Part shown: positions 25,545 through 51,376 of the stretch, in pieces | Position numbering within the stretch: the stretch's first letter is position 1 | How the letters are laid out: each line of letters starts with the position of its first letter | NCBI GenBank assembly: GCA_964513155.1 | Contig: CAZEMA010000004.1 | Coordinates: 5,284 to 60,609, forward strand | Direction: 5' to 3' | DNA length: 55,326 bases | Origin: an uncultured Anaerolineaceae bacterium | Lineage (GTDB): Bacteria > Chloroflexota > Anaerolineae > Anaerolineales > E44-bin32 | Translations under genes and position numbers: made by a program | The notes under the pieces: generated by a model | Seen by the model: only the letters and a program-made list of their open reading frames with translations | Databases searched by the model: none | Told to the model about the DNA's origin: nothing

Positions 25545-25578
25545 GGACATCTCAAGCCACATCGGAGGTCAAGCACGC

Positions 25579-26889: not shown

Positions 26890-26897
26890 CCAGCACC

Positions 26898-27159: not shown

Positions 27160-27261
27160 TACCGTGCACAGGAGCCACCTCACGCGGGGGCGCCGCTTCC
27201 CGCCAGCCGACGTGGACACGAGCAGGCAACCAAGGCCACATCCGCAAGCCAGGAGAGACCC

Positions 27262-29096: not shown

Positions 29097-30544
29097 ACGG
29101 CGGCCGGCCTCCGATTGAACCGCTGCGGACCCACCAGAGACTGCGCTGCCTGAGCGATCATCAACTCGACCAACTTCAGGAAGCGACGCTTCAGATCCTG
29201 GAGGAAGTGGGCGTCCGCTTTCCTTCGGAGAAGGCGCTCGCGATCCTGTCCGGCCACGGCGCCCGGGTTGACCCCAAGACACAGGTTGCCAGATTTCCAA
29301 GAGAACTCGTACTCGGGGCAATGTCGAGCGTGCCGCGGTACTTCCACCTCGGTGCCCGCGATCCCTCCCTTGACCTCCAGCTTCAGGACGGGGTCACCTA
29401 CTTCACCTCGGACGGATGCGGGGTCGAGACGGTCGACTTCGAGACCGGCCAGCGGCGTCCCTCGTGCAAGGCGGATGTGGCGCTCATGGCGCGCGTCTGC
29501 GACTATCTCTCGTCAATGGCCTTCTGCTGGCCGATGGTCAGCGCCCAGGATCATGGCAGGACCGCGCCCCTGCACGAGATGGACGCTTGCTGGAACAACA
29601 CCCTTAAGCATGTCCAGAGTGAGACGATCATGGGCGAGGCGCCGGCCCGCTACGCAGTCGAAATGGGCAGTGTGATCGCCGGCAGCCAGGACGAGCTTCG
29701 CCGCCGCCCGACGTTCTCCCTCGTGGTATGCACGATCGCCCCCCTGGTCCAGGATAAGGCCGGCATCGAGGGAGCGCTCGTCCTGGCTGAAGCCGGCGTG
29801 CCGGTCGGCTTTCTGGCCATGCCAACCATGGGGACCACTGCCCCGGCAAGCCTGCCAGGCGCGCTGGCCATGGCCGACGCCGAGATCGTCAGCGCCGCCG
29901 TGCTCATGCAGCTGGCCGCTCCCGGCGCCCCCGTGTTCCACTCGCTGATGCAGGCCTGGGCCGACCCGCGCTCGGGGGCCTACATAAGCTACCCGCTCGA
30001 CTCTCGCGGCCGCTATGCGCCCGTGGAGATGGCCCATCACTGGGGAATGCCAGCCCTGGGCGCCGCCTTCGGCACAGACGCCCCGGCTCCTGGCACCTGG
30101 CAATCGGCGGCTGAGGTCGCCCTGGATCCGTTCTGGGTCGCGCTGACGGGCGCCGAGTTCGTGACAGGCATCGGCCTCGCCGAAACGTATACGCTGCTGT
30201 ACCCCGAGGCCATCATCCTGGACGACGACCTGTACCACCGGGCCCGATATGCCTTGATGGACCTGGAGATCAACGCTGAGACATTGGCCGTCGAGGTCGT
30301 CCGCGCCGTGGGGCCCGCTGGTCACTTCCTGGCGCAGAAGCACACCCGCCAGCACATGCGCCAGGCGATGAAGCCTGCCATCACCCAGATGGCCGGGGAG
30401 AGTGCCAAGTACCTCGAACCGCGCCAGGCGGCGCGAGCCAAGCTCGAATGGATCCTGAAGAACCATCAACCGGAACCCCTGGAGGTAGCCAAGCGAGCCG
30501 AGCTCGAGCGAATCCTCGCCGCCGCCGACAAGGAACTGGGGTAG
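29093..30544 (+). CDS. MttB-superfamily (trimethylamine-methyltransferase-like) methyltransferase, non-pyrrolysine type, paralog A1
   Basis: There is an ATGA overlap with the upstream gene. The protein is 483 aa. LSDHQLDQLQEATLQILEEVGV is a typical MttB-family N-terminus. There is no internal in-frame TAG. Confidence 0.8.
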   Translation: MNGGRPPIEPLRTHQRLRCLSDHQLDQLQEATLQILEEVGVRFPSEKALAILSGHGARVDPKTQVARFPRELVLGAMSSVPRYFHLGARDPSLDLQLQDGVTYFTSDGCGVETVDFETGQRRPSCKADVALMARVCDYLSSMAFCWPMVSAQDHGRTAPLHEMDACWNNTLKHVQSETIMGEAPARYAVEMGSVIAGSQDELRRRPTFSLVVCTIAPLVQDKAGIEGALVLAEAGVPVGFLAMPTMGTTAPASLPGALAMADAEIVSAAVLMQLAAPGAPVFHSLMQAWADPRSGAYISYPLDSRGRYAPVEMAHHWGMPALGAAFGTDAPAPGTWQSAAEVALDPFWVALTGAEFVTGIGLAETYTLLYPEAIILDDDLYHRARYALMDLEINAETLAVEVVRAVGPAGHFLAQKHTRQHMRQAMKPAITQMAGESAKYLEPRQAARAKLEWILKNHQPEPLEVAKRAELERILAAADKELG

Positions 30545-30574
30545 CTAGGCGATCTGCGGCCAGGAGGCAATGAG

Positions 30575-32026
30575 TTGACAAGCGAAACCCCGAAGCTGCA
30601 GCCGATCGTGCCTGCCTACCACGTGCGCCTCCTGACGGACGAGCAGCTGGATCGGTTCAAGTCGGCGACACTCACGATCCTGGACGAGGTCGGCGTTCAC
30701 TGCCCCTCACAACGAGCTCGGGACATCTACGCCGAGCACGGCGCAAGGGTGGAGGCTGACCAGCAGATCGTCCGGCTCCCGCCGGCGATGGTCCTGGAGG
30801 CCATGTCCCACGCTCCTCGCTTCTACACCATGGGGGCGCGCCAGGCAGCGTATGACCTCCGGCTCGACGGGAAGGCAATGTACATCGCCACCGACGGCTG
30901 TGGCGTGGAGACCATTGACTTCTCAACTCGCCAGCGCCGCCCGTCAATGAAAGACGACGTTGCCAAGATGGCCCGGGTGGTCGATGCCCTCCCCTCGGTC
31001 GGCTTCTACTGGCCCATCGTCAGCGCCCAGGACCATCCGCCCACTGCCCCCTTGCACGAACTGGAAGCTTCATTCAACAATACGCTCAAGCACGTCCAGA
31101 CCGAGACCGTCATGGATGAGCGCATGGCGCGCTACGCTCTCGAAATGGCCCGGGTTATCGCCGGGGACGAGACCACGCTGCGCGGGCGTCCACCTCTCTC
31201 ATCGCTGATCTGCACGATTGCGCCCCTGGCCCAGGATGGGGGAGGGATGGAGTCGGCGCTGGTCTTCGCCGAGGCTGGGCTGCCCGTCGGTTTCATGTCG
31301 ATGGCCAACACGGGCTCCACCGGGCCGGGGACGATCGCGGGCACGCTGGCCGCGGCCGACGCCGAGATCGTGGCGGCGCTGGTGCTGATCCAACTAGCGT
31401 TTCCGGGTGCTCCGGTATATCACTCCATGATGCCCGGGATCATGCACCCCCGCACCGGGGCGTATCTGGGCACGGCCTGGGAGGGCGACGTCTTCTACCC
31501 CCTGGGCGTCGAACTCGCCCACAACTGGGGCGTGCCGACTCTGGCCGGATGCTTTGGCACAGACGCCAGCGTGCCGGGCTGGCAGGCAGCCGCCGAGGCG
31601 CCTGCCTCCTTGCTCCTGTGTGCTCTGTGCGGCGCGGAGACAGGCAGTGGCATGGGGCTGCTGGAATCCTGCACCGTGCTTTACCCCGAGGCAGTGCTCC
31701 TGGACACCGACATCTACCACCGGGTGCGTATCCTGGCGGGATACCTCGAGACCGGACCCGAGGCTCTGGCCCTAGATGTGGTCCGGCAGGTCGGCCCGCG
31801 TGGCCAGTACCTGCGGAAACGCCATACCCGGGATCACCTGCGCCGCCTGAGCTTCTCGGAGCTCACCGCCCAACCCCTGCCAGGAGGCGGCTATCGGGAC
31901 CCTGTCGAGGTAGCCCGTGAGAAGGTAGACTGGATTTTGCAGAATCACCAGCCGGAGCCGTTGGAGTCCTACAAGCAAGACGAACTGGCAAGGATCCTTC
32001 GATCGGCGGAAGCGGAGCTGGCATGA
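30575..32026 (+). CDS. MttB-superfamily methyltransferase, non-pyrrolysine type, paralog A2
   Basis: A TTG start lies 7 nt after AGGAGG. The protein is 483 aa and colinear with A1 (TDGCGVETIDF, WPIVSAQDH, NNTLKHVQTE, HQPEPLE). Confidence 0.8.
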   Translation: MTSETPKLQPIVPAYHVRLLTDEQLDRFKSATLTILDEVGVHCPSQRARDIYAEHGARVEADQQIVRLPPAMVLEAMSHAPRFYTMGARQAAYDLRLDGKAMYIATDGCGVETIDFSTRQRRPSMKDDVAKMARVVDALPSVGFYWPIVSAQDHPPTAPLHELEASFNNTLKHVQTETVMDERMARYALEMARVIAGDETTLRGRPPLSSLICTIAPLAQDGGGMESALVFAEAGLPVGFMSMANTGSTGPGTIAGTLAAADAEIVAALVLIQLAFPGAPVYHSMMPGIMHPRTGAYLGTAWEGDVFYPLGVELAHNWGVPTLAGCFGTDASVPGWQAAAEAPASLLLCALCGAETGSGMGLLESCTVLYPEAVLLDTDIYHRVRILAGYLETGPEALALDVVRQVGPRGQYLRKRHTRDHLRRLSFSELTAQPLPGGGYRDPVEVAREKVDWILQNHQPEPLESYKQDELARILRSAEAELA

Positions 32027-32091
32027 GGCCGGGCCGAGGGCCAATGTCACAAGGTAACCACGGCCGGTGATGTTATCAGGAGGAGGGAGAG

Positions 32092-33837
32092 ATGCACGAC
32101 AAGTCTGAGCGCAGACGATGGATTGGGCTCACCTGGGTGGCTGTGCTGGCCATCGTGCTGGCCGGTTGCGGGACCCCGCAGCCGGAGGGGCCGACCCCCG
32201 AAGCCCCACCAGCCACGGCTGGACCCGGCGAGTTGTCCACCATCGTCATGGTCATCCCCGAGGATCCGCCTAGCTTCAACGGGTTGGTGACCGATGCCGG
32301 ATACGACTCGCTCGTTATGGAGCTCGTCCTGCTGAGCGTGACGGACATCGATCCCCAGGGCAATATCTTCCCCGAACTGGCTGCTTCTCTGCCAACGGTC
32401 GAGAACGGCGGGGTCGTCCTGGATGAGGCGAGCGGCGCCATGGACGTCACCTGGACCCTGCGCAACGATGTCTCCTGGGCGGACGGCGAGCCGGTGACCG
32501 CGGACGACGTGATCTTCACCTGGGAGGCGATCAACGCGCCCGAAGGTGGAATCTGGGTCCAGGGATCCGACTACGTCGACAGCGTTGAGAAGATCGACGA
32601 GTTCACTTTCGTCGTCCACTACACCTCCGTCTACACCGGCTACCTGACCCAGTTCGGCGGCGACCAGGTGGTCATCTGGCCTCACCACTACTGCGACGCG
32701 TCGCAGGGCTTTGTCGCCTGGGACTGCAACCGCCAGCCTCTGAGCGACGGCCCGTACATCCTCGAGGAGTGGGAGGAAGGCGACCACCTCACCTTCGTCC
32801 GCAACCCCATGTTCTACCAGGCCGGCAAGCCCTTGATTGACCGGATCATCATCCGCATCGTGCCTGAGGCGGCCGTGCGCCAGACCATGATGGCCCGGGG
32901 GGACGCCGATGTCGATGTCTGGGTGACGGAAGCGGGCATCGAGGAACTGAGCAGCGCCCCCGATGTCGCCGTCAGCATGGCCCCCAACCCCCGGTGGGTG
33001 TTCCGGCTCATCCCCAACCTGGCCGCTCGCGGAACCATCGATGCCGCGGCCACGCCCCACCCGATTCTCTCAGACGTGCGCGTGCGCCAGGCCATGCGCA
33101 TGGCGATTGACGTTGAGACCATTTCCCAGACCGTGTTCCGTGGCTATGGCCAGCCGATCTGGACGGAGTTCTTCCGCCCGCCCTACATCTGTACGATCAC
33201 CCGCCCCGCGTACGACCCCGAAGGGGCCCAGGCGATGCTGGAGTCGGCCGGTTGGGTTGACATCAATGACGACGGGGTCCGAGAGTGCCAGGGTTGCCTG
33301 AATGCTCCCGAGGGCTACCGCATGTCGATGGAATTCGCCACCTACGGTGAGTACGGCCCGGAGCTCGAACTGGCCCAGCAGTTGATCGGCGAGATGTTGG
33401 GCAGGATCGGCTTCGAGTTGCAGCTGCGGGTCCTCCAGGGACCGGTGATGTGGGCCGACCAGGCCAGCGGCGGCACCGAGCAGAATGGTCAGTTCGACCT
33501 CGACATGTACGATGATGGCTACCCCGGCGTGGACCCGACCGAGCATCTGTACTTCTATTACTACTCGGCCTCCGCCGTGCCCGATGCCGGCTTCAACGTC
33601 GGCCGGTGGATCAGCCCGGAATTCGACGCCTTGCTGGACGAGGCCTACACACTGGACGAAGCGCGGCGCCAGGAAGTGTTCTGCCAGATCGCCCAATTGC
33701 TGGACGAACAACTGCCGCAGATCCTGCTCTTCTCTGCCGTCAATGCCGACGCCCATTCCACGCGGCTTGAGGGCGTGCAATCCACGGTCAACGACATGGT
33801 GACCTGGAATGTCGCCGACTGGAGGCTCACCCAGTAG
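32092..33837 (+). CDS. Family-5 (Opp/Dpp/opine/nickel type) ABC substrate-binding lipoprotein
   Basis: An AGGAGGAGGGAG SD lies upstream. The lipobox is VLAGCG. The protein is 581 aa and has the SBP_bac_5 look (DVxWSDGEPVTADDVxFTWE). Confidence 0.85.
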   Translation: MHDKSERRRWIGLTWVAVLAIVLAGCGTPQPEGPTPEAPPATAGPGELSTIVMVIPEDPPSFNGLVTDAGYDSLVMELVLLSVTDIDPQGNIFPELAASLPTVENGGVVLDEASGAMDVTWTLRNDVSWADGEPVTADDVIFTWEAINAPEGGIWVQGSDYVDSVEKIDEFTFVVHYTSVYTGYLTQFGGDQVVIWPHHYCDASQGFVAWDCNRQPLSDGPYILEEWEEGDHLTFVRNPMFYQAGKPLIDRIIIRIVPEAAVRQTMMARGDADVDVWVTEAGIEELSSAPDVAVSMAPNPRWVFRLIPNLAARGTIDAAATPHPILSDVRVRQAMRMAIDVETISQTVFRGYGQPIWTEFFRPPYICTITRPAYDPEGAQAMLESAGWVDINDDGVRECQGCLNAPEGYRMSMEFATYGEYGPELELAQQLIGEMLGRIGFELQLRVLQGPVMWADQASGGTEQNGQFDLDMYDDGYPGVDPTEHLYFYYYSASAVPDAGFNVGRWISPEFDALLDEAYTLDEARRQEVFCQIAQLLDEQLPQILLFSAVNADAHSTRLEGVQSTVNDMVTWNVADWRLTQ

Positions 33838-33857
33838 CGGGGGGGGTTGCCCCTCCC

Positions 33858-33896
33858 GGCTCGCAGGTGCGACCGTTGCGGACGCACCTGCGAGCC
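33858..33896 (+). terminator. Intra-operon 14-bp perfect hairpin between the SBP and permease genes
   Basis: ggctcgcaggtgcg-(11 nt)-cgcacctgcgagcc lies 21 nt after the SBP stop and 17 nt before the permease start. Confidence 0.5.
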
Positions 33897-33912
33897 ATGA
33901 TTTGGGGATGAC

Positions 33913-34953
33913 ATGGGTCGCTACATCGCCCGGCGTCTGCTGCAGGCCATCCCGATGCTCTTCCTGCTCAGCCTCGTGCTGTTCACCTTGGTCAACCTGG
34001 CTCCCGGTGGGCCCCTGGCCAGCCAAGGTGTGTCGCGCCATGTCTCCCCGGAACGGCTGGAAAGGCTGAGGCGCGAATTCGGCCTGGATAAGCCCCTGGC
34101 CGTTCAGTATGTCATCTGGCTGATCGGAAATGACTGGATGAGGGTCGACGCGGACGGGGACGGTGTGCCAGACAGCTACGGCCAGCGCCGGGGCATCTTG
34201 CGAGGCGACTTCGGGTCCTCCTTCCGCACCCGCCAGCCGGTCCTCCAGGAGATCGCTGATCGCCTGCCCAATACCGCCTACCTGATGGCAGTCACCATCG
34301 TGGTCGTCGGTGTCATTGCCATTCCGGTGGGAGTCTTCTCAGCCGTCAGGCAATACTCCCTATTCGACATCGGCGTGACAACCTTGTCTTTCATGGGACA
34401 GGCGATCCCCGAGTTCTGGCTGGGCCTCATCCTGATCTTGATCTTCTACGCCCGCTTGGAGAACCCATTTACCGGCGCGCCCTTGCTCCCCTCGGGCGGG
34501 ATGTATACCCTGGGAATGGGCTTCTCGCTCTTGGATCGGATCAAGCATTTGATTCTGCCGGTCACGATGGGAGCCGTCGGCTGGGTTGCCTGGTACTCGC
34601 GCTTCCTGCGCTCCGGCATGCTGGACGTGATCAACCAGGACTACGTCCGCACCGCACGGGCCAAGGGCTTGGCCGAACGCAAGGTCCTGTACCGGCATGC
34701 CCTCAAGAACGCCTTGATCCCTCTGCTGACGATCTTCGGCCTGGACTTGCCCTACATTTTCACCGGATCCCTCTACGTCGAGCTGCTCTTCTCCTGGCCT
34801 GGCATGGGCAGGCTCTACTACCAAGCTGCGCTGGCTCGTGACTACCCACTCTTGATGGCCGTCCTGATCATCGCCTCGGCGACGACCGTCATCTGCAACC
34901 TGGTGGCCGACATCAGCTATGGCTACCTCGATCCCAGGATCCAGTATGAGTAG
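33913..34953 (+). CDS. ABC permease, DppB/OppB-like
   Basis: MGRYIARRLLQAIPMLFLLSLVLF is a typical N-terminus. The EAA-like region is YVRTARAKGL. Confidence 0.85.
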   Translation: MGRYIARRLLQAIPMLFLLSLVLFTLVNLAPGGPLASQGVSRHVSPERLERLRREFGLDKPLAVQYVIWLIGNDWMRVDADGDGVPDSYGQRRGILRGDFGSSFRTRQPVLQEIADRLPNTAYLMAVTIVVVGVIAIPVGVFSAVRQYSLFDIGVTTLSFMGQAIPEFWLGLILILIFYARLENPFTGAPLLPSGGMYTLGMGFSLLDRIKHLILPVTMGAVGWVAWYSRFLRSGMLDVINQDYVRTARAKGLAERKVLYRHALKNALIPLLTIFGLDLPYIFTGSLYVELLFSWPGMGRLYYQAALARDYPLLMAVLIIASATTVICNLVADISYGYLDPRIQYE

Positions 34954-35914
34954 CGACGGCGGCGCCGTGCGGGACGCCAGGACCTCGGCCCAAAGGGCCC
35001 GCGATCGTGCCCTCGAATCCGAGCACCTCGGTTCAGACCGGGGGTCGTTGGTATGGCGCCGCTTCCGCAGTCACCCAGGGGCCGTTGTGGGCACGATGGT
35101 CCTGGCGGTCCTGATCCTCATGGTCCTGCTCGCGCCGGCGTTGCCCCACGACCCGGAGCTCTCGTCGATGTCCGAGCGGCTCCAGCCCCCCTCCTTGTCC
35201 CATCCTATGGGCACAGACGCGTTGGGCCGGGACCTGCTCACTCGCGTTCTGTATGGGGGGCGCATCTCGCTGTCGGTGGGTCTGATGGTCGTGGCGATCA
35301 CGCTGGTCATCGGGGTGCCCATCGGGGCCGTCACCGGCTACTTCGGTGGATGGATCGACGATGTTCTGATGCGGATCACGGACGCCGCCCTCAGTCTGCC
35401 GGCCATTCTCGTGCTCATCCTGCTGAGCGCCGTCCTGCAGGAGATCCCGGTGCCCTTCATCCAGCACAACAACGTGCTGATGATCGCCGTGGTGATTGGC
35501 TCCCTCTCCTGGATGACGGTCGCCCGTCTGGTGAGGGCCAGCTTCCTCACCTTCCGGGAAATGGACTTCGTCACCGCCGCCCGCTGCATTGGCGCGCCCA
35601 ACTTCCGGATCATGGCCCGACACATCCTGCCGAACGCGGTCGGCCCCATCGTGGTCGAATCCACGCTCGAGGTTGGCTACGCCATCATGGAGGAATCCGG
35701 ATTGAGCTTCCTGGGTTTCGGCATCCAACCCCCGACGCCCAGCTGGGGAAACCTGCTCAGCAACGCACAAGACCATCTCATTCGAGAACCCTGGCTGGCC
35801 ATCTTCCCCGGGTTGATGATCTTCCTGACGATCATCTCGGTCAACTACATCGGCGACGGGGTACGGGATGCATTCGATCCCTACAAGGTACTCAAGAAGA
35901 TCGGGCAAGTCTGA
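34946..35914 (+). CDS. ABC permease, DppC/OppC-like
   Basis: The ATG at 34946 overlaps the upstream stop by 8 nt. HPMGTDALGRDLLTRVLYG and FVTAARCIGA are DppC-family motifs. Confidence 0.85.
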   Translation: MSSDGGAVRDARTSAQRARDRALESEHLGSDRGSLVWRRFRSHPGAVVGTMVLAVLILMVLLAPALPHDPELSSMSERLQPPSLSHPMGTDALGRDLLTRVLYGGRISLSVGLMVVAITLVIGVPIGAVTGYFGGWIDDVLMRITDAALSLPAILVLILLSAVLQEIPVPFIQHNNVLMIAVVIGSLSWMTVARLVRASFLTFREMDFVTAARCIGAPNFRIMARHILPNAVGPIVVESTLEVGYAIMEESGLSFLGFGIQPPTPSWGNLLSNAQDHLIREPWLAIFPGLMIFLTIISVNYIGDGVRDAFDPYKVLKKIGQV

Positions 35915-35933
35915 GGTTCCCCACAGGTGAGAG

Positions 35934-37364
35934 ATGCAGACAGTGCTGCGAGTGCTCTCGGACGATGAGCGGTCCCAGGTTCATGAGAGGACGCTCGAGG
36001 TACTCTCCAAAACAGGCCTTCGGGTTGATTCCGTCCGGGCGCGCAAGATCCTGGCGGACGCCGGGGCCGACGTGGATGAGACTTCTCGGATTGTACGTTA
36101 CCCCAAGGACCTGGTCGAGCGCTGCCTCAGCTCCGCGCCCAGGAAGTTCAACTTGGGAGGGCGGCGGCCCCACTGGACCCTCCCCCTAAGCAAGGGGGAG
36201 TGCACGCTGGTTGCCGATGGGGAGGGGATGCAGGTCGTCGACGGCACACCACTCCAGCGGCGTGCGGCGACGCCAGACGATTGGCTCAAGGCTACGCGGC
36301 TGATCGACGCCTTGGATGAGGTCGGCGTCTACTGGCGCATGGTGACAAGCGGCCTGGCCGGCCAATCGTCGGGAGACCTGGTCGCCTATTGGCGTAAGGT
36401 GTTCGGCAACTTCTCCAAGCATATCCAGGAGGGCAACGAAGATCCGGACCAAGTCCACTGGACCCTCGAGGTCTTGCAGGTCGTGTTTGGCGACCGGGCC
36501 ACCATCAAGCGCCTGCGGCCGGTCTCGTTCCTGCTCTGCCCCCTGTCGCCGCTCATCCTCCAGGGTGCGCCCGTCGATGCCTATCTGGAGACACTGGACT
36601 GGGGGATCCCCCTGGCCATCATGCCCATGCCTCTGATGGGGGCAACTGCGCCGGCAAGCCTGATCTCGACCCTCGTCTTGGCCAACACAGAGGCACTGGC
36701 GGTTCTGTGTTTGGCGCAGACGGCAGACCCGGGGACGCCCTGCATCTACGCGCCGGTCCCCGGTCTGGTTAACCCACGGACGGGCCGGTACAACGGCGGC
36801 GAGGTCGAACACGCTCTTCTCGGCGCGGCCGTGGCCGAGATGGGCGGCCACTACGGCCTGCCGGTCGAGACGGCGACCGGCGGCACCGATCAGCCCATTC
36901 CCGGCCTGCAGGCCGCCTACGAGCGCGCCATCAACTGGACGCTGCCGGTCTTGGCCTGGCCCGACATCCTGGTCGGCCCGGGCATGCTCAGCGGCTCGAC
37001 GGTCCTCTCGTATGAGCAGATGGTCATCGATGTGGAGATCTTCCGGCGATGCCGGCGGCTCCGCCAGGGGATCAACACCGAGCCGAAACGCTGGCTGGAG
37101 GACGTGCTGGCAGCCGTCGGCGCGGGTGGCAACTTCCTCGCCCAGCGCACCACTCGGGACGCCCTACGGAAGAACGAATGGTATATCAGCCGACTCGGTT
37201 TCCACGACACCTACGAGCAATGGGAAGCGCTCGACAGGCCATATATCCTGGCGGAAGCCCGCGAACGCGTTGATCAGTTCCTGGCGAACCGCGAGTCGCT
37301 ACCCCTGGATGATCGCGCAGAGCGCGAGCTCGATCGGATCGAGCGTCAGGCCCGGATGGCCTGA
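35934..37364 (+). CDS. MttB-superfamily methyltransferase, non-pyrrolysine type, paralog B1
   Basis: The protein is 476 aa. The N-terminus is LSDDERSQVHERTLEVLSKTGLRV, and MPMPLMGATAP is present. It is much more divergent from A1/A2. Confidence 0.75.
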   Translation: MQTVLRVLSDDERSQVHERTLEVLSKTGLRVDSVRARKILADAGADVDETSRIVRYPKDLVERCLSSAPRKFNLGGRRPHWTLPLSKGECTLVADGEGMQVVDGTPLQRRAATPDDWLKATRLIDALDEVGVYWRMVTSGLAGQSSGDLVAYWRKVFGNFSKHIQEGNEDPDQVHWTLEVLQVVFGDRATIKRLRPVSFLLCPLSPLILQGAPVDAYLETLDWGIPLAIMPMPLMGATAPASLISTLVLANTEALAVLCLAQTADPGTPCIYAPVPGLVNPRTGRYNGGEVEHALLGAAVAEMGGHYGLPVETATGGTDQPIPGLQAAYERAINWTLPVLAWPDILVGPGMLSGSTVLSYEQMVIDVEIFRRCRRLRQGINTEPKRWLEDVLAAVGAGGNFLAQRTTRDALRKNEWYISRLGFHDTYEQWEALDRPYILAEARERVDQFLANRESLPLDDRAERELDRIERQARMA

Positions 37365-37390
37365 CAATCCCCGAATAGAGAGGAGGAGGG

Positions 37391-38839
37391 TTGGACGTAC
37401 AGCTGCAGGTGCTGTCTGAGGCGGAACGGGAACGCGTCCACAGGGAAAGCCTGCGGATCCTGAGCGAGGTTGGCGTCCGCTTCCACGGTGACAAGGCCTT
37501 GGGGATTCTGGAGACTCACGGCGCCAAGGTCTCCCGAGAGCAGAAGCTGGCCAGGATCCCCCAGGAGTTGGTCAGCCTAGCCCTGGCAACTGCCCCCAAG
37601 TCCTTCGTGTTGCAGGCCAGGAATCCCGATTTGAGTTTCTCGCTCCCCTCGGCCTTCCCGGGCTACGGCATGGATGGGACGTGCGCCTTTGCCGTTGACT
37701 TCGAGACCGGGGAGAGGCGCTACGGAACCACCAAGGACATCCGCAACGCCTTACGCGTCTTCCAGGCGCTGGATCTGGCCGTGATGGCCTGGTCGCCCAC
37801 GTGTGCCTCGGACAAGCCGGCCAACGCCAGGCCCCTGCACGAGTTCTTCGGCATGCTGCGGCACTGCTCCAGGCACGGCCAGCACGAACTCCACCGCGTC
37901 GAGCAGGTGCCCTACCTCATCGCCGGTCTTAAGGCCATCCTGGGCAGCGAGGACGCCATCAAGGCGAAGAAGATCTGCTCCCTGATCTACTGCCCTGTGG
38001 CCCCTCTGGTCCACGATGGGCAGATGCTGGACGCCTATCTCGAACTGGGCGAGTTCGAGTTGCCCGTGATGATCATGCCCATGCCGGTTACCGGAACCAC
38101 CGGCCCCGCCAGCCTATTCTCCAACATCTGCCTGGCGAATGCTGAAACGCTCTCGGCGATCGTCGTCTTCCAGCTTGCCCACCCCGGCCGACACTTGATC
38201 TACAGCGATGCGGTCGGCACAATGGACTTCGCCACGGGCGGCTTCCTGGCCGGCGCGCCGGAGACGGCGCTCCAGGCGACCGGTCTCGTTGCCATGGGCC
38301 GTCACTACAACCTCCCGACGACGTCCACCGGCTGTTCGGCCGACGCCAAGGAACCCGGGGCGCAGGCTGTCCTGGAGAAGGTGCTCACGACGCTGCCCTG
38401 CGTCTTGGCCGGCTCGGATATGATCATTGGGATCGGCTTGATCGAGTGCAGCCAGACCCTTGTCCTGGAGCAGATCGTCGTCGACAACGAGATCGGCCAC
38501 CTGTGCCAGCGCATACGCCAGGGGATTGACACCGACGAGAAAAGGAACCTGTTCGCAGACATTGCCCAGGTGGGTCCTGGCGGCAACTTCCTCAAGTCAA
38601 GGAGCACCCGCCAGGCCGCCCGCAGTGGTGAGTTCTCGCGCACGACGCTGGTGGATCGGCAACCCTACGAGGCCTGGGTCAAGCAGGGAATGCCATCGAT
38701 CTACACCCGGGCCAGGGAGAAGGTGCGGGCGATTCTGGAGGCTCCCCCTGTGGATCCCTTGCCCGAGGACGTATCTCATGAATTGGACGAGATCCTGCGC
38801 GTCGCCGACCGCGAGATCCCTGCGGAGGCCGGCGGGTAG
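37391..38839 (+). CDS. MttB-superfamily methyltransferase, non-pyrrolysine type, paralog B2
   Basis: A TTG start follows GAGGAGGAGGG. The protein is 482 aa. LSEAERERVHRESLRILSEVGVRF and MPMPVTGTTGP are present. Confidence 0.75.
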   Translation: MDVQLQVLSEAERERVHRESLRILSEVGVRFHGDKALGILETHGAKVSREQKLARIPQELVSLALATAPKSFVLQARNPDLSFSLPSAFPGYGMDGTCAFAVDFETGERRYGTTKDIRNALRVFQALDLAVMAWSPTCASDKPANARPLHEFFGMLRHCSRHGQHELHRVEQVPYLIAGLKAILGSEDAIKAKKICSLIYCPVAPLVHDGQMLDAYLELGEFELPVMIMPMPVTGTTGPASLFSNICLANAETLSAIVVFQLAHPGRHLIYSDAVGTMDFATGGFLAGAPETALQATGLVAMGRHYNLPTTSTGCSADAKEPGAQAVLEKVLTTLPCVLAGSDMIIGIGLIECSQTLVLEQIVVDNEIGHLCQRIRQGIDTDEKRNLFADIAQVGPGGNFLKSRSTRQAARSGEFSRTTLVDRQPYEAWVKQGMPSIYTRAREKVRAILEAPPVDPLPEDVSHELDEILRVADREIPAEAGG

Positions 38840-38962
38840 CCTCGGCGAACAACAACCGTTGGTGATTGCCAGCGCGCCCGCGAGGTTGCTCTGCCTTCTC
38901 TGCCCCGGCCCAAGAGGCGGACTACGGATACCGTCGGATCACCCGTTCCCTGAGGAGTGGAA

Positions 38963-45785: not shown

Positions 45786-46811
45786 CTACTGCCCGCCGGG
45801 CACCCGCGGCATGTCAAGCATGAGCGTTTCCATCGCCAGCGTCAGATTGGCATTGCGCCGGATGGACTCGATTGTCCGCTCTGTCGCCCGAACGGCCGCC
45901 ACGACCTCGAAAGGAGGCACAGACACCTTCAGGCGCTTGAGATCCCTCCCCCGATCCGGGTTTGCCAAGGGCGCTTGCACGCCATAGGCTGCCAGCATTG
46001 CGTCCCGCCACAGGCTGAGCCAGGTCTCCAGGACCTCTACCGCCTTCCGCCTCTTCGCCTCAAGATCGACTTCTCGGCTCCTTCTGCCCACCAAGCGGTC
46101 AACATAGTCGAATTGCTCGGGCCGGCCCGCACCGAGGAGTCGCTGCAGCTCGTCCAGGACCTGCACCCTCAGCTCCAGAAGTTGTGGTTCCCCTCTCAGT
46201 TGCAGGGCCCGCCCCGGCCTTCCCGCGGCCAGCGCCGCCAGGAGGGCAGACCGGTCCGGTGTCTCTCCCGTGGCGGCCAGGGCCGCCGCGATCTCCCCAG
46301 CGGGCAGGCCCCGGAGTGCCACTACCTCACATCGAGACACGATGGTGGGCAGCAGACTCTCCGGCTCGCGCGCCGTCACCAGAAGCACGACCCGCGAGGA
46401 GGGTTCCTCCAGCGTCTTGAGCAAGGCGTTCTGGGCAGGAAGACTGGCATCGTGGAAGTCGGCCAGGAGCGCCACCCGGCAGCGCCCGGCATAGGGCGCC
46501 AGGGCCAACTGGTGCTGCAACTCGCGTATCTGGTCAATCGGAATCTGGCTCTCCCCCAGCCGCCTGGATACCACATGCAGGTCCGGGTAGCTTTGGGCGT
46601 CGATCTGTCCGCAGGCGCGGCAAGTCCTGCAGGCCTCCCCAGGCAAGGGCGGTGACTCGCAGGCGAGCACCCGCGCGAAACGCAACGCCAGGGTCCGTTT
46701 CCCAACGCCGTTCGGCCCCGTGAAAAGGTAGGCGTGGCGAACCCGGCCGTCGGCGAGATGCTTCTGCAGAAGCTCCACCGCCCACGCGTGCCCGATCATT
46801 TCCCAAGCCAT
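45786..46811 (-). CDS. holB: DNA polymerase III delta-prime subunit
   Basis: MAWEMIGHAWAVELLQKHL..GRVRHAYLFTGPNGVGKRTLALRFA, a Cys-rich zinc module (CRTCRACGQ) and an SRC-like motif (TIVSRC) are present. Confidence 0.85.
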   Translation of the reverse strand: MAWEMIGHAWAVELLQKHLADGRVRHAYLFTGPNGVGKRTLALRFARVLACESPPLPGEACRTCRACGQIDAQSYPDLHVVSRRLGESQIPIDQIRELQHQLALAPYAGRCRVALLADFHDASLPAQNALLKTLEEPSSRVVLLVTAREPESLLPTIVSRCEVVALRGLPAGEIAAALAATGETPDRSALLAALAAGRPGRALQLRGEPQLLELRVQVLDELQRLLGAGRPEQFDYVDRLVGRRSREVDLEAKRRKAVEVLETWLSLWRDAMLAAYGVQAPLANPDRGRDLKRLKVSVPPFEVVAAVRATERTIESIRRNANLTLAMETLMLDMPRVPGGQ

Positions 46812-46906
46812 GGCCCGATTGTAGCCGATCTCGGGGCCTCCGCCGAGAGCAGGTGCTCCATGCTCCCCTCTCGGGTATAATCCCCCCAGCACCCTAGGAA
46901 AGCGCG

Positions 46907-47425
46907 ATGCCCAGCCTTCTCGGTCAAGTCATGAGCGTACCCTGGCTCTCCCGACTGCGGCGAAACCATGCCCTCGAGCATGCCACCGTTCGCTTGATCA
47001 GCGCCCGCTACCCACGGAAGTTCGTGGCTGGCCACTCGGATCCCATGGGGTTCACCCTGCACGCAGATCTCCCTACCGAGGTTGTCCAACAGGCCGCTCA
47101 GGAGGCGCTGGCCAGGCTGGCGGAAGGAGAACGGCACCTAGCCATCCACCCGAACTGTGGCACCAACTTCATCGCCTCCGGCACACTGGCAGGGCTGGCG
47201 GCCTTTCTCAGCCTGAGTGGGACACGTAGCCCGCGCCGGCGCGACCTCCTCGCCCGGCTGCCTTTCACCATCCTGGCCACTACGCTGGCCGTCATCCTGG
47301 CCCAACCGGTCGGCCTCCAGCTTCAACAGCATGTGACCACCCAGGCCGATCCGGCGGGTCTGGCCATCCGGAGCGTCCGGCGGCTACCTCGCGGCCGCGC
47401 CCACCGCATCCTTACCTCCGGCTGA
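46907..47425 (+). CDS. Conserved-looking hypothetical protein with HxxEH and HPNCGT motifs and two C-terminal hydrophobic segments
   Basis: RNHALEHATV, AIHPNCGTNF, then IASGTLAGLAAFLSL and LPFTILATTLAVILAQPVGL. Its stop lies 1 nt before the holA start. An alternative start is at 46931. Confidence 0.5.
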   Translation: MPSLLGQVMSVPWLSRLRRNHALEHATVRLISARYPRKFVAGHSDPMGFTLHADLPTEVVQQAAQEALARLAEGERHLAIHPNCGTNFIASGTLAGLAAFLSLSGTRSPRRRDLLARLPFTILATTLAVILAQPVGLQLQQHVTTQADPAGLAIRSVRRLPRGRAHRILTSG

Positions 47426-47426
47426 C

Positions 47427-48401
47427 ATGGATCGCCCCCCTCCTAGCGTCTACCTGCTGCATGGCGATGACGATCTGGCCATCGCCGAGTTCATCGCCCG
47501 CTTGAAGGCTAAGCTTGGCGATCCCGCGACTGCCGAGCTCAATATCCAGACGTTCAGCGCCGACACCCTCCAGATGAGCGCCCTGGAGGAAGCCTGTACC
47601 GCGGCTCCCTTCCTCTCTCGGCGGCGCCTGATCATCGTCACGCACGCCTCAGCCTTCGGCCCCGCCGGCAGTCACCGGCAAGAGGCTCTTCTGGACCTGC
47701 TGGGTCGATTGCCGCCGACGACTGCCCTGGTACTGGTCGAGGCTTCCAATCTCGAATCGAACTCACCCCTGCCCCGTTGGGCCGAAGCCCACCAACAGGC
47801 TGTCTTCATCCGGGAATTCGCCATCCCCCGGGGTCCGGCCTTTGTCGGATGGATCCGCGACCGGTGCAAGAGCCTCGGCGGCGAGGTTGATCCCGAAGCC
47901 GCTCGGCTCCTGGCCGACTCGATCGGAGAGGATCCACGCTTGGCTCACCATGAACTCACCAAGCTCCTGGACTACGTTGACCGGAGCCGACCCATTCGGC
48001 GCGAGGACGTCGAAGCTCTCACTCCCGTCAAGGGCCAGAGCGATGTGTTCGCCATGGCGGATGCCCTGGGCACCGGCGATGGCCGCCAGGCGCTGGCCCA
48101 CCTGCAGCGCCTCCTGGCGGACGAATCCCCCCGTGCCATCTTCCCCATGATTGTCCGGCACTTCCGCCTGCTGCTGCTCGCCCGGGAGGCGCTGGACTCC
48201 GGCCAGGATCCAAAACAAGCCCTGAGCCAGCACCGATGCCCCGTCCCTCGAATCACCACGCAGGCGCGCCGCTTCTCAGCCGCCCAACTGCACGCCATCT
48301 ACCATCGGCTCCTGGAGACCGACGTGGCGATGAAGACCAGCCAGATCGAGGACGCCATCGCCCTCCAGACACTCGTCGCCAGCCTAGCCACGCAGGCGTA
48401 G
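47427..48401 (+). CDS. holA: DNA polymerase III delta subunit
   Basis: VYLLHGDDDLAIAEFIARLK is the N-terminus. The length (324 aa) and the helical C-terminal domain pattern are typical of HolA. Confidence 0.8.
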   Translation: MDRPPPSVYLLHGDDDLAIAEFIARLKAKLGDPATAELNIQTFSADTLQMSALEEACTAAPFLSRRRLIIVTHASAFGPAGSHRQEALLDLLGRLPPTTALVLVEASNLESNSPLPRWAEAHQQAVFIREFAIPRGPAFVGWIRDRCKSLGGEVDPEAARLLADSIGEDPRLAHHELTKLLDYVDRSRPIRREDVEALTPVKGQSDVFAMADALGTGDGRQALAHLQRLLADESPRAIFPMIVRHFRLLLLAREALDSGQDPKQALSQHRCPVPRITTQARRFSAAQLHAIYHRLLETDVAMKTSQIEDAIALQTLVASLATQA

Positions 48402-48516
48402 GCACCACTGCTCCGGGAAACGAAGGCCGTGCAGCACACCCCTTATCGGGGATAGCCGCACGGCACGTCGTCCGCCCCTGGCCCGGAAGCCAGGAGATGA
48501 CCCTCCTGCCACGGCT

Positions 48517-48538
48517 GAGCTCTCAGGGATGAGAGCTC
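48517..48538. terminator. 9-bp hairpin at the convergent junction (overlaps the stop of the 48523-48792 ORF)
   Basis: gagctctca-ggga-tgagagctc. Confidence 0.3.
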
Positions 48539-48792
48539 ACCGGGCTGGCAACCCCGCTACGCCGGCCGTCGCCGACCCCCAGCCAGAAGTGATCCGGGAG
48601 CACTGAGTGGCTGGTCTTCACGTCCAACGGGCCAAGCTTGCCGGGAGAGTTGTCACCCGCCGTGGCCGGGTTCACAAAGCACAACGTCGGGACCCTCCCA
48701 TACTTGCGGTGATAGTAGTCTGCGGCACGCTGGATCTTGGTGGGCACATCCAGCCCCGGATCCGCATCGAACCACAACATGCCTACATCCAT
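48523..48792 (-). CDS. Hypothetical 89-aa protein (third gene of the FtsK-like operon)
   Basis: The ATG at 48792 is preceded by GGGAGG and sits 1 nt after the upstream stop (TGAGATG). MDVGMLWFDADPGLDVPTKIQRAADYYHRKYGRVPTLCFVNP has a globular, non-repetitive composition. The longer 49041 start looks non-coding. Confidence 0.5.
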   Translation of the reverse strand: MDVGMLWFDADPGLDVPTKIQRAADYYHRKYGRVPTLCFVNPATAGDNSPGKLGPLDVKTSHSVLPDHFWLGVGDGRRSGVASPVSSHP

Positions 48793-48793
48793 C

Positions 48794-49054
48794 TCAGCCT
48801 CCCGTCGCCGGCAGCACTTGCTCGATACGCCAAGACCCATCGCGGGGATCCAAAGACAACTGGCATCGCATCCCGGTCGCCGTCCGCAGACGGAGAGTCC
48901 GCTTGCGTGCCCCTTGCCCGCGGCCACCCCAGTCACGGCAGACCTCGACGGCGCGGACTTCATGCCTCCGCCCCCGCCATATAAAGTCTTTGGGCAGTCC
49001 GGCTGGCGTGCCCCTCCCCACTCGGATCCTCTCCCCCGCACCCACGATCCTCAT
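48794..49054 (-). CDS. Hypothetical 86-aa protein (second gene of the FtsK-like operon)
   Basis: The ATG at 49054 follows a GGGGAGG SD. The beta-rich pattern PKDFIWRGRRHEVRAVEVCRDW...RLRTATGMRCQLSLDPRDGSWRIEQV is present. The family is not assignable from memory. Confidence 0.45.
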   Translation of the reverse strand: MRIVGAGERIRVGRGTPAGLPKDFIWRGRRHEVRAVEVCRDWGGRGQGARKRTLRLRTATGMRCQLSLDPRDGSWRIEQVLPATGG

Positions 49055-49175
49055 CCCGACCTCCCCTCACCAACGGATCTGCCCCGCCCAAGGCTGACTC
49101 GCGCCGCCCACGCGAAGGCTTCCCTCACCACCCGGCCGACGCCGGTCGTCAACACATCGTACGTCCCCAGAGCCC

Positions 49176-50198
49176 TCAGGACCAGCAGGACCTCCCTTCC
49201 TGTCGTCGCGAATGCACTGTGGAAGCGAGCCGCACGCCCGCGTCCATGTCCCGCGCGCTTAGCCAAGCTGTCTTCGCGCGAACGGTTCTGCTTCCCGAGT
49301 GGAAGTCGAACCGTCCGACGGCCGGAGCACCTCCGTTCGCCTCCCCTGTTGTGGCCACCGCCTGGATCGTGCTGGCTTTGCCCAGACGAAGCCCCAGCGA
49401 GTCCATCAACCCTAATCCCGCGGCCGCGAGAACATGGACCCCACAAACCGGCCCTTGCCTCCAGATCTGCTCGAGGTCATGCCCGCCGGGTTCGCAGTCC
49501 GCATGGGCTAGCCACGACAGGTCGTCCAGGACGAGAACGAGCTCCGGCCTGCGAATCCCTGCCGTCGTACGCCGCGCCACTTCTTCCACCAGCCACGACA
49601 GCAGTTCCAGCGCGTACCCCTCCTCCGTCGCCAGCTCAGCCACCGCGTGCGGCAATGCCTCCATCACGGCAAGTTCCCGGCCACCGATGTCGATCCCGAG
49701 AACTTGGAGCTGGGAGGCCCGGCTGGTTAGTGCCAGACTGAACATCGCAGCCCTGAGCAACTCCGACTTGCCGCAGCCATGGTCCCCAGTCGCGAGCAGG
49801 CTCCAGGTCTCCCGCCCCTGGAGGGGGAAGAGCAAGGGTTGCCCCTCTGGGGTCAACCCCAGCAGGACCGTCAACGGCGGAAAGGGCCCCAAAGCTTCGA
49901 GCAGGGGCAACAGGCGCACGTGGGGCTGACCCGGGAGTGGGACATCCACTGCCAGGTCTCCCTCTCCGGGCGCAAGCCGCACCTCTGGGACACCGAGCGC
50001 CCGCGCCACCTCGCCTGCCACCGCGCCTAGCTGGCTGAGCGCGGTCCCAGGCATCGGCGTCAGCCTGTATCGCACCCAACCTCTCCTGACTTCGCCTCCA
50101 CCCACATGTACTGGCACGGCTAGGCCCAGGAATGCTCGCTCGATCTGGTCCGCCTGCGCATCCAGGGTCTCTGTCTCCCACGGAAAGGTATCCACCAC
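49176..50198 (-). CDS. Soluble minimal FtsK/SpoIIIE-like P-loop ATPase (alpha+beta motor domains only)
   Basis: It has Walker A (LLATGDHGCGKSELL) and Walker B (LVLVLDDLSWL). It is colinear with the FtsK motor (LQVLGIDIGGRELAVMEALPH, CGVHVLAAA, GRFDFHSG..VRAKTAWLS). It has no TM segments and no gamma domain. The start is a GTG at 50198 or 50195, after GGAGGG. Confidence 0.65.
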   Translation of the reverse strand: MVDTFPWETETLDAQADQIERAFLGLAVPVHVGGGEVRRGWVRYRLTPMPGTALSQLGAVAGEVARALGVPEVRLAPGEGDLAVDVPLPGQPHVRLLPLLEALGPFPPLTVLLGLTPEGQPLLFPLQGRETWSLLATGDHGCGKSELLRAAMFSLALTSRASQLQVLGIDIGGRELAVMEALPHAVAELATEEGYALELLSWLVEEVARRTTAGIRRPELVLVLDDLSWLAHADCEPGGHDLEQIWRQGPVCGVHVLAAAGLGLMDSLGLRLGKASTIQAVATTGEANGGAPAVGRFDFHSGSRTVRAKTAWLSARDMDAGVRLASTVHSRRQEGRSCWS

Positions 50199-50217
50199 AT
50201 CCCTCCATTGGCCACGG

Positions 50218-50233
50218 TAGAACGCATGTTCTA
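50218..50233. promoter_or_regulatory. Cheo-type LexA (SOS) box, perfect arms
   Basis: TAGAAC-GCAT-GTTCTA is GAAC-N4-GTTC with symmetric extension. It lies immediately downstream of the -10 of the minus-strand promoter. Confidence 0.6.
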
Positions 50234-50239
50234 TCCACT

Positions 50240-50268
50240 ATGATACAGAACATTTGTGCGGTTGTCAA
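50240..50268 (-). promoter_or_regulatory. Near-consensus sigma-70 promoter of the FtsK-like operon
   Basis: The minus strand reads TTGACA (50268-50263), a 17-nt spacer, then TATCAT (50245-50240). It lies about 40 nt upstream of the start codon. Confidence 0.6.
50248..50259. promoter_or_regulatory. Second, imperfect LexA-like box inside the promoter spacer
   Basis: GAAC-ATTT-GTGC has one arm mismatch. It lies between the -35 and the -10. Confidence 0.4.
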
Positions 50269-50492
50269 GCCACACCGGATGAGAGTGTTGAAAAAGCCCC
50301 CCGGTGGGAGATCCTGACGTAGGAGTGAGAAGAACGCGTCCTTCCGTACGTCTGGGCGTCCCTCAGGCCACCGCAGGCGTGATTCGTGGTGATGATATTC
50401 ATCCTCTCCCCTCTCACCCTTCCCCGGAGCGCCACCCTGAGGCTAGGCCGCTTCCAGAGAGGCTTCTCGGTAACTCGACCCCGAGCCGGGTG

Positions 50493-50501
50493 TGCTACAA
50501 T
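50493..50501 (+). promoter_or_regulatory. Extended -10 element (TGcTACAAT) upstream of the MEMO1-like gene
   Basis: TG at 50493-50494 and TACAAT at 50496-50501. The -35 is weak. The start codon is 24 nt downstream. Confidence 0.35.
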
Positions 50502-50524
50502 CTGATTGCGAGGGAGATGAAGAG

Positions 50525-51376
50525 ATGAGACCCGATGTCCGGCCCTCCCCCATCGCTGGGACCTGGTATCCTGGCGACGCAGACACGCTCACCCGCTCCG
50601 TCGACGAACAACTCCGCCAGGCCGAGATCGTATCGCCCGCAGGCGAGATGCTTGGCGTCATCGCGCCGCATGCCGGTCACATCTACTCCGGCCTGGTCGC
50701 CGCCTACGCCTTCCAGACGCTCCGGAACCTCCGGCCGGAGGTCGTAGCCGTTGTTTCCCCTCTGCATCAACCCTACCCCGGCCAGGTCCTCACCTCTGGC
50801 CACGAGGCCTACGCCACGCCCCTAGGCAAAGTGCCAGTCGACCGTGACCTGGTCGGCCGTCTGGAGGGCCAACTCGCCAGTGCAGCCGGCATCCACCTCA
50901 GGCGCGTCACGAACGACCAGGAACACTCCCTCGAGATCCAGTTGCCTTTCCTGCAGAGAGCCCTGGCGGCTCCCTTCCGGCTACTGCCCCTCATGCTCCG
51001 CGACCAATCTCACGAGGCTGTCGAGGCCGTCGGCCACGCCCTGAGCTCTGTCCTGACCGGCACGAGCGCCATTCTCGTGGGCAGCTCCGATCTCTCGCAC
51101 TTCTACCCCGACCCCGTCGCCCGTCGCCTGGACGCCGAGGTCCTGGCGCGCATCGAGGCATTCGACCCAGACGGCGTCCTGGAGACGGAGGAGAAGGGCG
51201 TTGGCTTCGCCTGCGGCCGTGGCGCGGTGGCGGCCGTGCTTTGGGCCGCCAGGGACCTGGGCGCGGACAGCGTGCAGATCCTCCGCCACGCGACCTCGGC
51301 TGATGTCACGGGGGACTACGCTTCGGTGGTCGGCTATGGGGCTGCGGCTATCTACCGCGCCCGGCCGGGTGACTAG
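50525..51376 (+). CDS. AmmeMemoRadiSam system protein B (MEMO1 family)
   Basis: MRPDVRPSPIAGTWYPGD.....V........GVIAPHAGHIYSG..AA.AF and EHSLEIQLPFLQ are MEMO1-family signatures. Confidence 0.8.
   Translation: MRPDVRPSPIAGTWYPGDADTLTRSVDEQLRQAEIVSPAGEMLGVIAPHAGHIYSGLVAAYAFQTLRNLRPEVVAVVSPLHQPYPGQVLTSGHEAYATPLGKVPVDRDLVGRLEGQLASAAGIHLRRVTNDQEHSLEIQLPFLQRALAAPFRLLPLMLRDQSHEAVEAVGHALSSVLTGTSAILVGSSDLSHFYPDPVARRLDAEVLARIEAFDPDGVLETEEKGVGFACGRGAVAAVLWAARDLGADSVQILRHATSADVTGDYASVVGYGAAAIYRARPGD

Follow-up and report, generated by a model that had tools for sequence, protein, structure and literature searches.

A stretch of 55,326 nucleotides from an uncultured Anaerolineaceae bacterium of the phylum Chloroflexota (assembly GCA_964513155.1, contig CAZEMA010000004.1, positions 5,284 to 60,609), hereafter the window, carries three co-directional genes, identified by analysis of GC content at third codon positions (GC3) and by Pfam searches. 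The first encodes a short FtsK-like ATPase. The genes lie downstream of a promoter that contains two palindromes of the GAAC-N4-GTTC type, designated operators 1 and 2 (Table 1). The arrangement of these operators, which recurs in orthologous loci and at lexA and recA genes of related bacteria, makes it very probable that the operon is repressed by LexA as part of the SOS response.

Coordinates are positions in the window, and the promoter is read on the minus strand, where 49900-50600 was inspected. Both hexamers and both boxes had been described in an initial annotation of this DNA (TTGACA-17-TATCAT), and every coordinate and sequence in that description is correct on direct reading. The 17-nt spacer falls within the 16-18 nt that separate the hexamers of sigma-70-type promoters. 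A scan for such promoters across 2.3 kb (48300-50600) returned this site only, with 11 of 12 matches, compared with 0.3 sites in shuffled sequences. Operator 1 lies 3 nt after the -35 hexamer, inside the spacer. Its core, GCAC-AAAT-GTTC at 50259-50248 on the minus strand (GAAC-ATTT-GTGC on the plus strand), has one mismatch to GAAC-N4-GTTC. Operator 2 begins 6 nt past the -10 hexamer, so that it would cover the predicted transcription start at about 50232-50234. Two in-frame GTG codons, at 50198 and 50195, follow the ribosome-binding site. The second is probably the start of gene 1 because gene calls in relatives give 339 aa, and its use leaves 5 nt between GGAGGG and the start codon.

Table 1. 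Coordinates of the promoter elements, genes and other features discussed for the window.
Feature	Position	Strand	Sequence or size	Basis or remark
-35 hexamer	50263-50268	-	TTGACA (consensus)	Direct reading and promoter scan
Operator 1 (putative), in promoter spacer	50246-50261		CCGCACAAATGTTCTG (minus strand)	Ortholog-derived matrix
-10 hexamer	50240-50245	-	TATCAT, 17 nt after -35	Direct reading and promoter scan
Operator 2 (putative)	50218-50233		TAGAAC-ATGC-GTTCTA, perfect 16-bp palindrome	Direct reading; matrix
Ribosome-binding site	50201-50206	-	GGAGGG	Direct reading; GGAGG kept in orthologs
Gene 1, short soluble FtsK-like ATPase	49176-50198	-	340 aa from GTG 50198, more likely 339 aa from 50195	
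Gene 2, DUF6504-like protein	48794-49054	-	86 aa	Near-threshold match to PF20114
Gene 3, conserved protein	48523-48792	-	89 aa	Starts 1 nt after gene 2 stop
Terminator-like hairpin	50297-50311	-	TCTCCCACCGGGGGG then CTTTTT	
holA	47427-48401			
DUF6391 gene	46907-47425			
holB	45786-46892			
MttB-superfamily paralogs	29093-30544, 30575-32026, 35934-37364, 37391-38839			No in-frame stop, so not pyrrolysine-type
Corrinoid-binding protein gene	27262-27915			

The 223 nt that separate memo from the promoter contain a terminator-like hairpin, about 30 nt upstream of the -35 hexamer. Parts of it are kept in L163 (loci of relatives carry the prefix L), and in L164 a hairpin terminator occupies the equivalent place after lexA. 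The window hairpin may shield the putative SOS promoter against read-through; alternatively, it may be left over from an upstream gene that was lost.

Gene 1 is predicted to encode an FtsK alpha-beta motor with a RecA-like fold and a P-loop. Pfam detects FtsK_SpoIIIE (6.6e-17) and FtsK_alpha (7.8e-5). An AlphaFold2 model built with 28 homologs (predicted local distance difference test, pLDDT, 83.8) is matched best by the FtsK motor domains 2iut, 6t8b and 2ius (E ~1e-20), with TcpA, a coupling protein, and EccC/EssC next in rank. In the alignment to P. aeruginosa FtsK, the Walker A motif GDHGCGKS pairs with GTTGSGKS, and G141, G143, K144, S145 and D225 are invariant or nearly so in the family. 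No N-terminal membrane domain or linker was found in gene 1: the alpha domain begins at residue 8, and the model has no N-terminal transmembrane helices. A gamma domain is likewise absent, as FtsK_gamma has no Pfam hit in the window protein or in that of L164 and the alpha-beta alignment to FtsK structures takes up all 340 residues. The predicted fold suggests ATP-driven translocation on double-stranded DNA.

The two downstream genes encode small proteins. Gene 2 matches Pfam PF20114 (DUF6504) with an E value of 5.1e-5 and 23.9 bits, just under the cut-off of 24.2 bits, and its positional counterparts in L028, L095 and L164 score 27.6, 34.5 and 24.2 bits, respectively, and so reach it. A literature search found nothing on DUF6504. 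Gene 3 has no Pfam hit; it is conserved in all syntenic loci (tblastn), and a homolog is present by translation in the lexA-adjacent operon of L164. Gene calls at the matching places in L163 are 339, 86 and 89 aa long. In other relatives, a gene for a 136-154-aa protein stands between the short ftsK and DUF6504 (L028 11032-11448, L164 7176-7586, L095 2295-2759, L173 7168-7596). The translated copies of L164 and L095 contain two hydrophobic predicted membrane helices, and a weak Pfam match of the L164 protein to the Rv2743c family (E 0.0026) stays below threshold. Neither the window nor L163 has such a gene; both instead show a non-coding gap of ~120 nt (49055-49175 in the window); the small membrane protein gene has been lost in this lineage.

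Conservation and specificity of the paired boxes

The window FtsK-like protein has 44 homologs of 320-376 aa, some of them named Anaerolineales. A scan of a collection with one genome per species yielded 27 loci in Anaerolineales, Anaerolineaceae and Anaerolineae metagenome-assembled genomes (MAGs), 25 of which include upstream DNA. Gene order is identical across all 27, one of which, L002, comes from the complete genome CP070708.1 (Anaerolineaceae bin52). The family diverges fast: the FtsK-like proteins of the 25 orthologs are 35-48% identical to that of the window, compared with 54-69% for the neighbouring PriA, CorC and Memo, and the flanking DNA is unalignable.

The promoter layout is kept in all 25 orthologs, as TTGACA, three nucleotides, GAAC-N4-GTTC, the -10 hexamer, 0-8 nt and (T)AGAAC-N4-GTTCT(A). 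Conservation upstream of orthologous operons had been named in the initial annotation as a check on its reading. Two perfect boxes are present in 24 of the 25, with the spacer box 3 nt past the -35 hexamer. The remaining ortholog, L020, belongs to another high-GC lineage and resembles the window in having one perfect box and an imperfect spacer box. The -10 variants TAGAAT, TATAAT and TATGAT occur at the same place, and in most orthologs the TG of an extended -10 (TGn) comes from the GTTCTG with which operator 1 ends. Further copies with the same layout are found in L028-L033. In L163, whose protein is 78% identical to that of the window, the sequence from the -35 through just past the -10 is identical to the window, imperfect box included, and the remaining intergenic region carries substitutions and indels.

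A MAFFT alignment of 13 diverse orthologous upstream regions shows conservation only of an invariant CTTGACA, the four half-sites, the -10 hexamer and the ribosome-binding site. The GAAC and GTTC half-sites are invariant in the orthologs and the central N4 is variable, a pattern that speaks for protein contacts to specific bases and against a hairpin. The centres of the two boxes are 22, 23, 28, 30, 31 or 34 bp apart, with the box positions relative to the -35 and -10 fixed. This combination fits two independently placed repressor dimers that occlude RNA polymerase. Full Anaerolineales synteny with both boxes also occurs in L011 (JAIWHF010000105.1), deposited as 'Methanosarcinales archaeon'; the label is very likely that of a MAG in which this contig is a binning contaminant.

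A pattern search bears out the annotators' impression that operator 2 is the single perfect GAAC-N4-GTTC in the window. Such a lone site in 55 kb is not significant by itself, as 0.63 sites are expected and at least one occurs in 51 of 100 shuffles. The 16-mer TAGAAC-N4-GTTCTA is rarer, with 0.25 expected even when two mismatches are allowed. When the window is scanned with a 16-bp weight matrix derived from 33 unique ortholog sites, precisely two positions reach 9 bits or more, operator 2 at 23.9 bits and operator 1 at 15.3 bits. In each ~9-kb ortholog locus, only the two promoter sites reach at least 12 bits. Above all, the sites are not attributable to chance because the promoter layout is conserved across orthologous promoters. 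The palindromic core is perfect at operator 2 and, in the orthologs, at both positions. The overlap with the core promoter, inside the spacer and just past the -10, is likewise the same in the orthologs as in the window.

According to PMC3323433, LexA of B. subtilis, M. tuberculosis and Gram-positive bacteria recognises GAAC-N4-GTTC; the annotation had named this motif for Gram-positive bacteria. The window operators share this palindromic core with the Cheo or SOS box of Gram-positive LexA (DinR). They also share its geometry, in which sites lie over the -35/-10 spacer and the transcription start, for example in recA and lexA promoters, and several boxes may occupy one promoter. The window operator would be an ordinary member of this box family with a preference for A/T flanks (wAGAAC-N4-GTTCTw in Anaerolineae), which differ from the CGAAC...GTTCG of the B. 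subtilis box. Unlike those Gram-positive systems, the host of the window belongs to a Chloroflexota lineage, in which SOS regulation is predicted from sequence. Taken together, this promoter and the orthologous ones yield, with high confidence, a model of the LexA operator for the class and offer a reporter promoter for DNA damage.

LexA-type boxes at lexA and recA and linkage of the operon

If the boxes bind LexA, the same motif should mark lexA and recA, as the initial annotation had reasoned. This expectation holds in relatives; the 55 kb of the window contain neither gene. Searches by tblastn with E. coli and B. subtilis queries found no lexA or recA in the window or in the first 27 loci, and Anaerolineae LexA as query found neither lexA nor a pseudogene relic in the window. 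Pfam searches of ~40 open reading frames detected no other SOS genes in the window, which consequently provides no internal positive or negative control.

A metagenome scan for AGAAC-N4-GTTCT boxes 70-130 nt upstream of codons for GYPPxxRE, a conserved N-terminal motif of LexA, gave 120 lexA loci. These loci were chosen for the presence of a box but not for where it lay with respect to the promoter. Of the 120, 34 encode a distinct LexA type (ISSTSVVxYNL; 43-71% GC), and here the box lies right after TTGACA in the spacer or just past the -10, which are the two operator positions of the window. A sample independent of the box was assembled from a protein-database profile search with these LexA proteins and from lexA genes adjoining short ftsK. 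All six genes of this sample (L158, L161, L164, L169, L170 and the fpg-lexA operon of L173) have GAAC-N4-GTTC in the core promoter. Their products contain LexA_DNA_bind and Peptidase_S24 domains (Pfam), and Anaerolineae LexA aligns over its full length with B. subtilis LexA at 38-41% identity.

At recA, the box stands just past the -10 in four of four genes on Chloroflexi-type contigs (L095, L096, L137 and L139); the L095 product matches Pfam RecA at 6.9e-133. The motif of the window is thus shared with lexA and recA promoters of its clade. It is also selective. Within 231.6 kb surrounding 36 Chloroflexi-type lexA genes, scores of 15 bits or more, lexA's own sites aside, are confined to positions before recA (four loci) and before short ftsK (two loci) and to one unexplained site.

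Several relatives carry the operon beside these regulatory genes. In L053 and L161, short ftsK directly follows lexA behind a double-box or single-box promoter. L095, L096 and L139 show the order lexA, terminator, box-bearing promoter, recA and short ftsK; L095 continues with the gene of a 154-aa predicted membrane protein and DUF6504, and the contigs of L096 and L139 end in ftsK. A search with the L095 protein gave 4437 hits, the best 120 of which are at least 68% identical, and members of this family are named 'DNA translocase FtsK [Anaerolineae bacterium]' or '[Chloroflexi bacterium]'. L164, whose FtsK is named 'Anaerolineae bacterium', has lexA with a spacer box, followed by a double-box promoter (TTGACA-TCGAACAAATGTTCTG-GTATGAT-N12-TAGAACATATGTTCTG) and a short ftsK of 390 aa. 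Genes for a 136-aa protein with two predicted membrane helices, DUF6504 (70 aa) and an 89-aa homolog of gene 3 come next, and the convergent flank holds DUF6602, holA and DUF6391. L173 has an L164-like order, with fpg-lexA and one intervening gene. Because the flank of holA and DUF6391 is common to the window and L164/L173, the window operon is the positional ortholog of a lexA-adjacent operon. In the Anaerolineales clade, the lexA side has been replaced by memo-corC-priA. The box is also present at the other sampled short ftsK copies, L168 and L172.

Additional observations concern these lexA and ftsK loci. In L173 (2653-4157), fpg, encoding formamidopyrimidine DNA glycosylase, and lexA form one operon behind TTGACA-CCGAACATTTGTTCGC-GTATAAT, so that in that lineage the same box precedes a gene of base-excision repair. 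Roughly 80 of the 120 metagenome lexA loci (L038-L157; e.g. L041, L045 and L049) lie on contigs of ~70% GC and encode a LexA with the unusual N-terminus MTRHDAERRQRIL; AGAAC-N4-GTTCT is upstream of all members of this majority group, by selection. A second LexA subgroup (L040, L074 and L107; GC 0.60-0.66) has a short linker and a KGKSMI catalytic motif. In this subgroup, lexA adjoins a holA that is 33-37% identical to the window holA, and no short ftsK was detected in the fetched stretch; the arrangement hints that lexA, ftsK and holA were once neighbours. Finally, GCA_024232355.1 ('Chloroflexi bacterium') carries two paralogous short ftsK genes (L172 2628-3677 and L168 6001-7038), each behind TAGAACATTTGTTCTA. 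The L172 copy has NACHT/trypsin and SIR2-STAND genes around it and a further FtsK_SpoIIIE gene nearby, a setting that suggests a defence island or mobile element.

Probable regulation by LexA and possible roles of the operon

Conserved operators, the presence of the same box at lexA and recA, the specificity of the motif and the gene neighbourhood, as four independent computational lines, support the assignment of the FtsK-like operon to the SOS regulon, as first proposed in the annotation. In the mechanism that these features suggest, a strong sigma-70-type promoter would be kept off by LexA. One LexA dimer would occupy operator 1 in the spacer and a second would occupy operator 2, past the -10 and across the transcription start, and both would block RNA polymerase binding or open-complex formation. 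Upon DNA damage, RecA would trigger self-cleavage of LexA and transcription would start. The resulting transcript, with a 5' untranslated region of ~35 nt, would express the motor-only FtsK, the DUF6504-like protein and the 89-aa protein. As a best guess, the motor would process or segregate DNA after RecA-mediated recombination, for example chromosome dimers or intermediates present only during active recombination. Such work on recombination products is suggested by the co-regulation or co-transcription of the motor gene with recA.

A number of points weigh against LexA repression of this promoter. The assignment is built on DNA sequence, from which we infer LexA binding, damage induction, the transcription start and the role of the motor. 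The presence of LexA in the window genome and its use of the motif are extrapolated from relatives, since the 55 kb contain neither lexA nor recA. Only six box-independent lexA genes serve as a test; they are few, and several are homologous to pre-selected ones. The mismatch of operator 1 falls in a core half-site (GCAC), and the score of this operator, 15.3 bits, lies below the 20-27 of most orthologs, so that its affinity is presumably weaker than that of operator 2. Among relatives, the lexA-linked operons closest to the window encode short FtsK proteins only ~30-35% identical to the window protein. Moreover, the content of the LexA regulon varies within Chloroflexota, to judge from what is reported for Dehalococcoides, of the same phylum and a different class, which the annotation had cited as a precedent. 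LexA of Dehalococcoides ethenogenes reportedly binds GAAC-N4-GTTC in its own promoter. It is said to have bound the lexA and uvrA promoters and not recA, with no FtsK-like target, whereas the Anaerolineae-type recA carries the box.

The boxes could also be real LexA sites in front of a housekeeping FtsK that is expressed at a basal level for chromosome segregation and boosted by the SOS response, and not part of a dedicated damage-response system. We regard this as less likely than not. According to PMC4080785, which cites Wang & Lutkenhaus 1998 and Dorazi & Dewar 2000, transcription of E. coli ftsK from the essential, LexA-controlled dinH promoter is induced in the SOS response; like gene 1, it is an FtsK-family translocase gene behind a LexA-type promoter. 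The likeness does not extend to the proteins or the boxes. The E. coli protein (147 kDa) sits in the membrane, comprises N-terminal division, linker and gamma domains and is encoded behind a CTGT-N8-ACAG box, whereas the window combines a 340-aa alpha-beta motor alone with two Gram-positive-type boxes and, here and in relatives, two or three small co-transcribed partner genes. Gene 1 lacks both the gamma domain and the membrane domain that has the essential division role in E. coli. NCBI names related short proteins 'DNA translocase FtsK', and the L095-type family is large and well conserved; the window-type family, in contrast, evolves fast relative to its neighbours. In Gram-positive genomes, the proximity of an ftsK/spoIIIE gene to recA is an ancient trait of gene order, and adjacency to recA may be partly inherited. 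Two operators on a near-consensus promoter, with no second promoter detected in the scan, suggest tight repression and would fit poorly with a constitutive need.

It is very improbable that the palindromes are operators of a different dimeric repressor that recognises a GAAC-N4-GTTC-like sequence. Palindromes of this size are typical of many helix-turn-helix repressors, and binding of LexA to the boxes is a prediction, with no lexA in the 55 kb. However, no other regulator gene is conserved beside the operon in more than 30 loci, lexA and recA promoters are marked by the box, which is otherwise nearly absent from 231.6 kb, the operon repeatedly adjoins lexA, and the motif is the established Gram-positive LexA motif (PMC3323433). 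RNA or DNA hairpins, such as a stem-loop in the 5' untranslated region, or chance matches can be set aside almost entirely: operator 2 could fold into a 6-bp stem closed by a 4-nt loop at the transcript 5' end and a single GAAC-N4-GTTC is expected in a window of this size, but the half-sites are invariant without compensatory changes while the central N4 and flanks vary, operator 1, being upstream of the transcription start, cannot be part of the transcript, an Rfam scan of the whole window found no RNA family and hence no riboswitch or small RNA explanation, and conservation in all orthologs excludes chance.

Beyond LexA repression of the promoter, a broader and more tentative proposal, to which we give somewhat less than an even chance, concerns the function of the operon. 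Anaerolineae and other Chloroflexota may carry a dedicated, tightly LexA-repressed DNA-translocation module that consists of a motor-only FtsK, usually a small membrane protein, DUF6504 and the ~89-aa protein. This module would ancestrally belong to a lexA/recA cluster and act only after damage, with the small partners replacing the membrane-anchoring and gamma-domain functions. If so, it might segregate or resolve chromosomes joined by RecA-dependent recombination, process recombination intermediates or serve as a nucleoid damage checkpoint. Together with E. coli dinH-ftsK, the closest precedent in function is SmeA-SffA of Streptomyces (2007; cited in PMC9380542), which pairs a small membrane protein with an FtsK-family motor without a full membrane domain of its own. 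As in that pairing, a protein of 136-154 aa with two predicted membrane helices is encoded directly after short ftsK in L028, L095, L164 and L173; the window lineage differs in having no small membrane protein gene. A soluble FtsK-like translocase, SftA, exists in B. subtilis. To our knowledge, neither SmeA-SffA nor SftA is LexA-regulated.

The class-wide, lexA/recA-linked operon of a stand-alone FtsK motor, DUF6504 and small partners seems to be undescribed in the literature searched. That literature contained nothing relevant on Anaerolineae and LexA, only passing mentions of Chloroflexi and the SOS box, and nothing on a short-FtsK operon. We know of no SOS regulon that includes a short FtsK, DUF6504 or the 89-aa protein, and of no experimental characterisation of the SOS response in Anaerolineae, filamentous bacteria that are abundant in sediments, digesters and wastewater sludge. 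Well-studied SOS regulons would offer no counterpart to an FtsK motor that stands alone, has conserved small partners and is inherited together with lexA or recA. If the module acts on recombination products, it would tie SOS induction directly to the segregation of chromosomes in a lineage with a poorly understood cell-division machinery, and DUF6504 would gain its first biological context. The operon opens a specific, testable question on SOS-controlled DNA translocation in Chloroflexota.

Surroundings of the operon

Chromosomal housekeeping genes surround the operon. Memo, CorC and PriA are encoded divergently upstream, whereas the downstream side begins with a convergent holA, beyond which come DUF6391, holB, spoVS and two deoxynucleoside kinase genes. 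An origin of window gene 1 in a defence island or mobile element was considered and rejected in view of this conserved chromosomal block (priA-corC-memo, the operon, holA-DUF6391-holB-spoVS). In relatives, the operon is 7-10 kb from dnaA and radA (L028 1-2786, L031 128-3472, L158 1-1009), and hence near the presumed replication origin; the window ends in priA, before this region. The DnaA of L158 is ~50% identical to those of L028 and L031, and in L158 and L170 lexA is ~9 kb from dnaA.

DUF6391 lies between holA and holB in the window. It adjoins holA, which encodes the delta subunit of the clamp loader, in every Anaerolineae locus examined, including the differing neighbourhoods of L164 and L173, and may be an uncharacterised partner of the replication clamp loader.

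Elsewhere in the window, an island at ~21400-38840 contains four full-length MttB-superfamily methyltransferase paralogs. The same island encodes a corrinoid-binding protein, two saccharopine-dehydrogenase-like proteins, three class-III aminotransferases and an oligopeptide/betaine-type ABC transporter, and looks like a cluster for quaternary-amine or methylamine demethylation.

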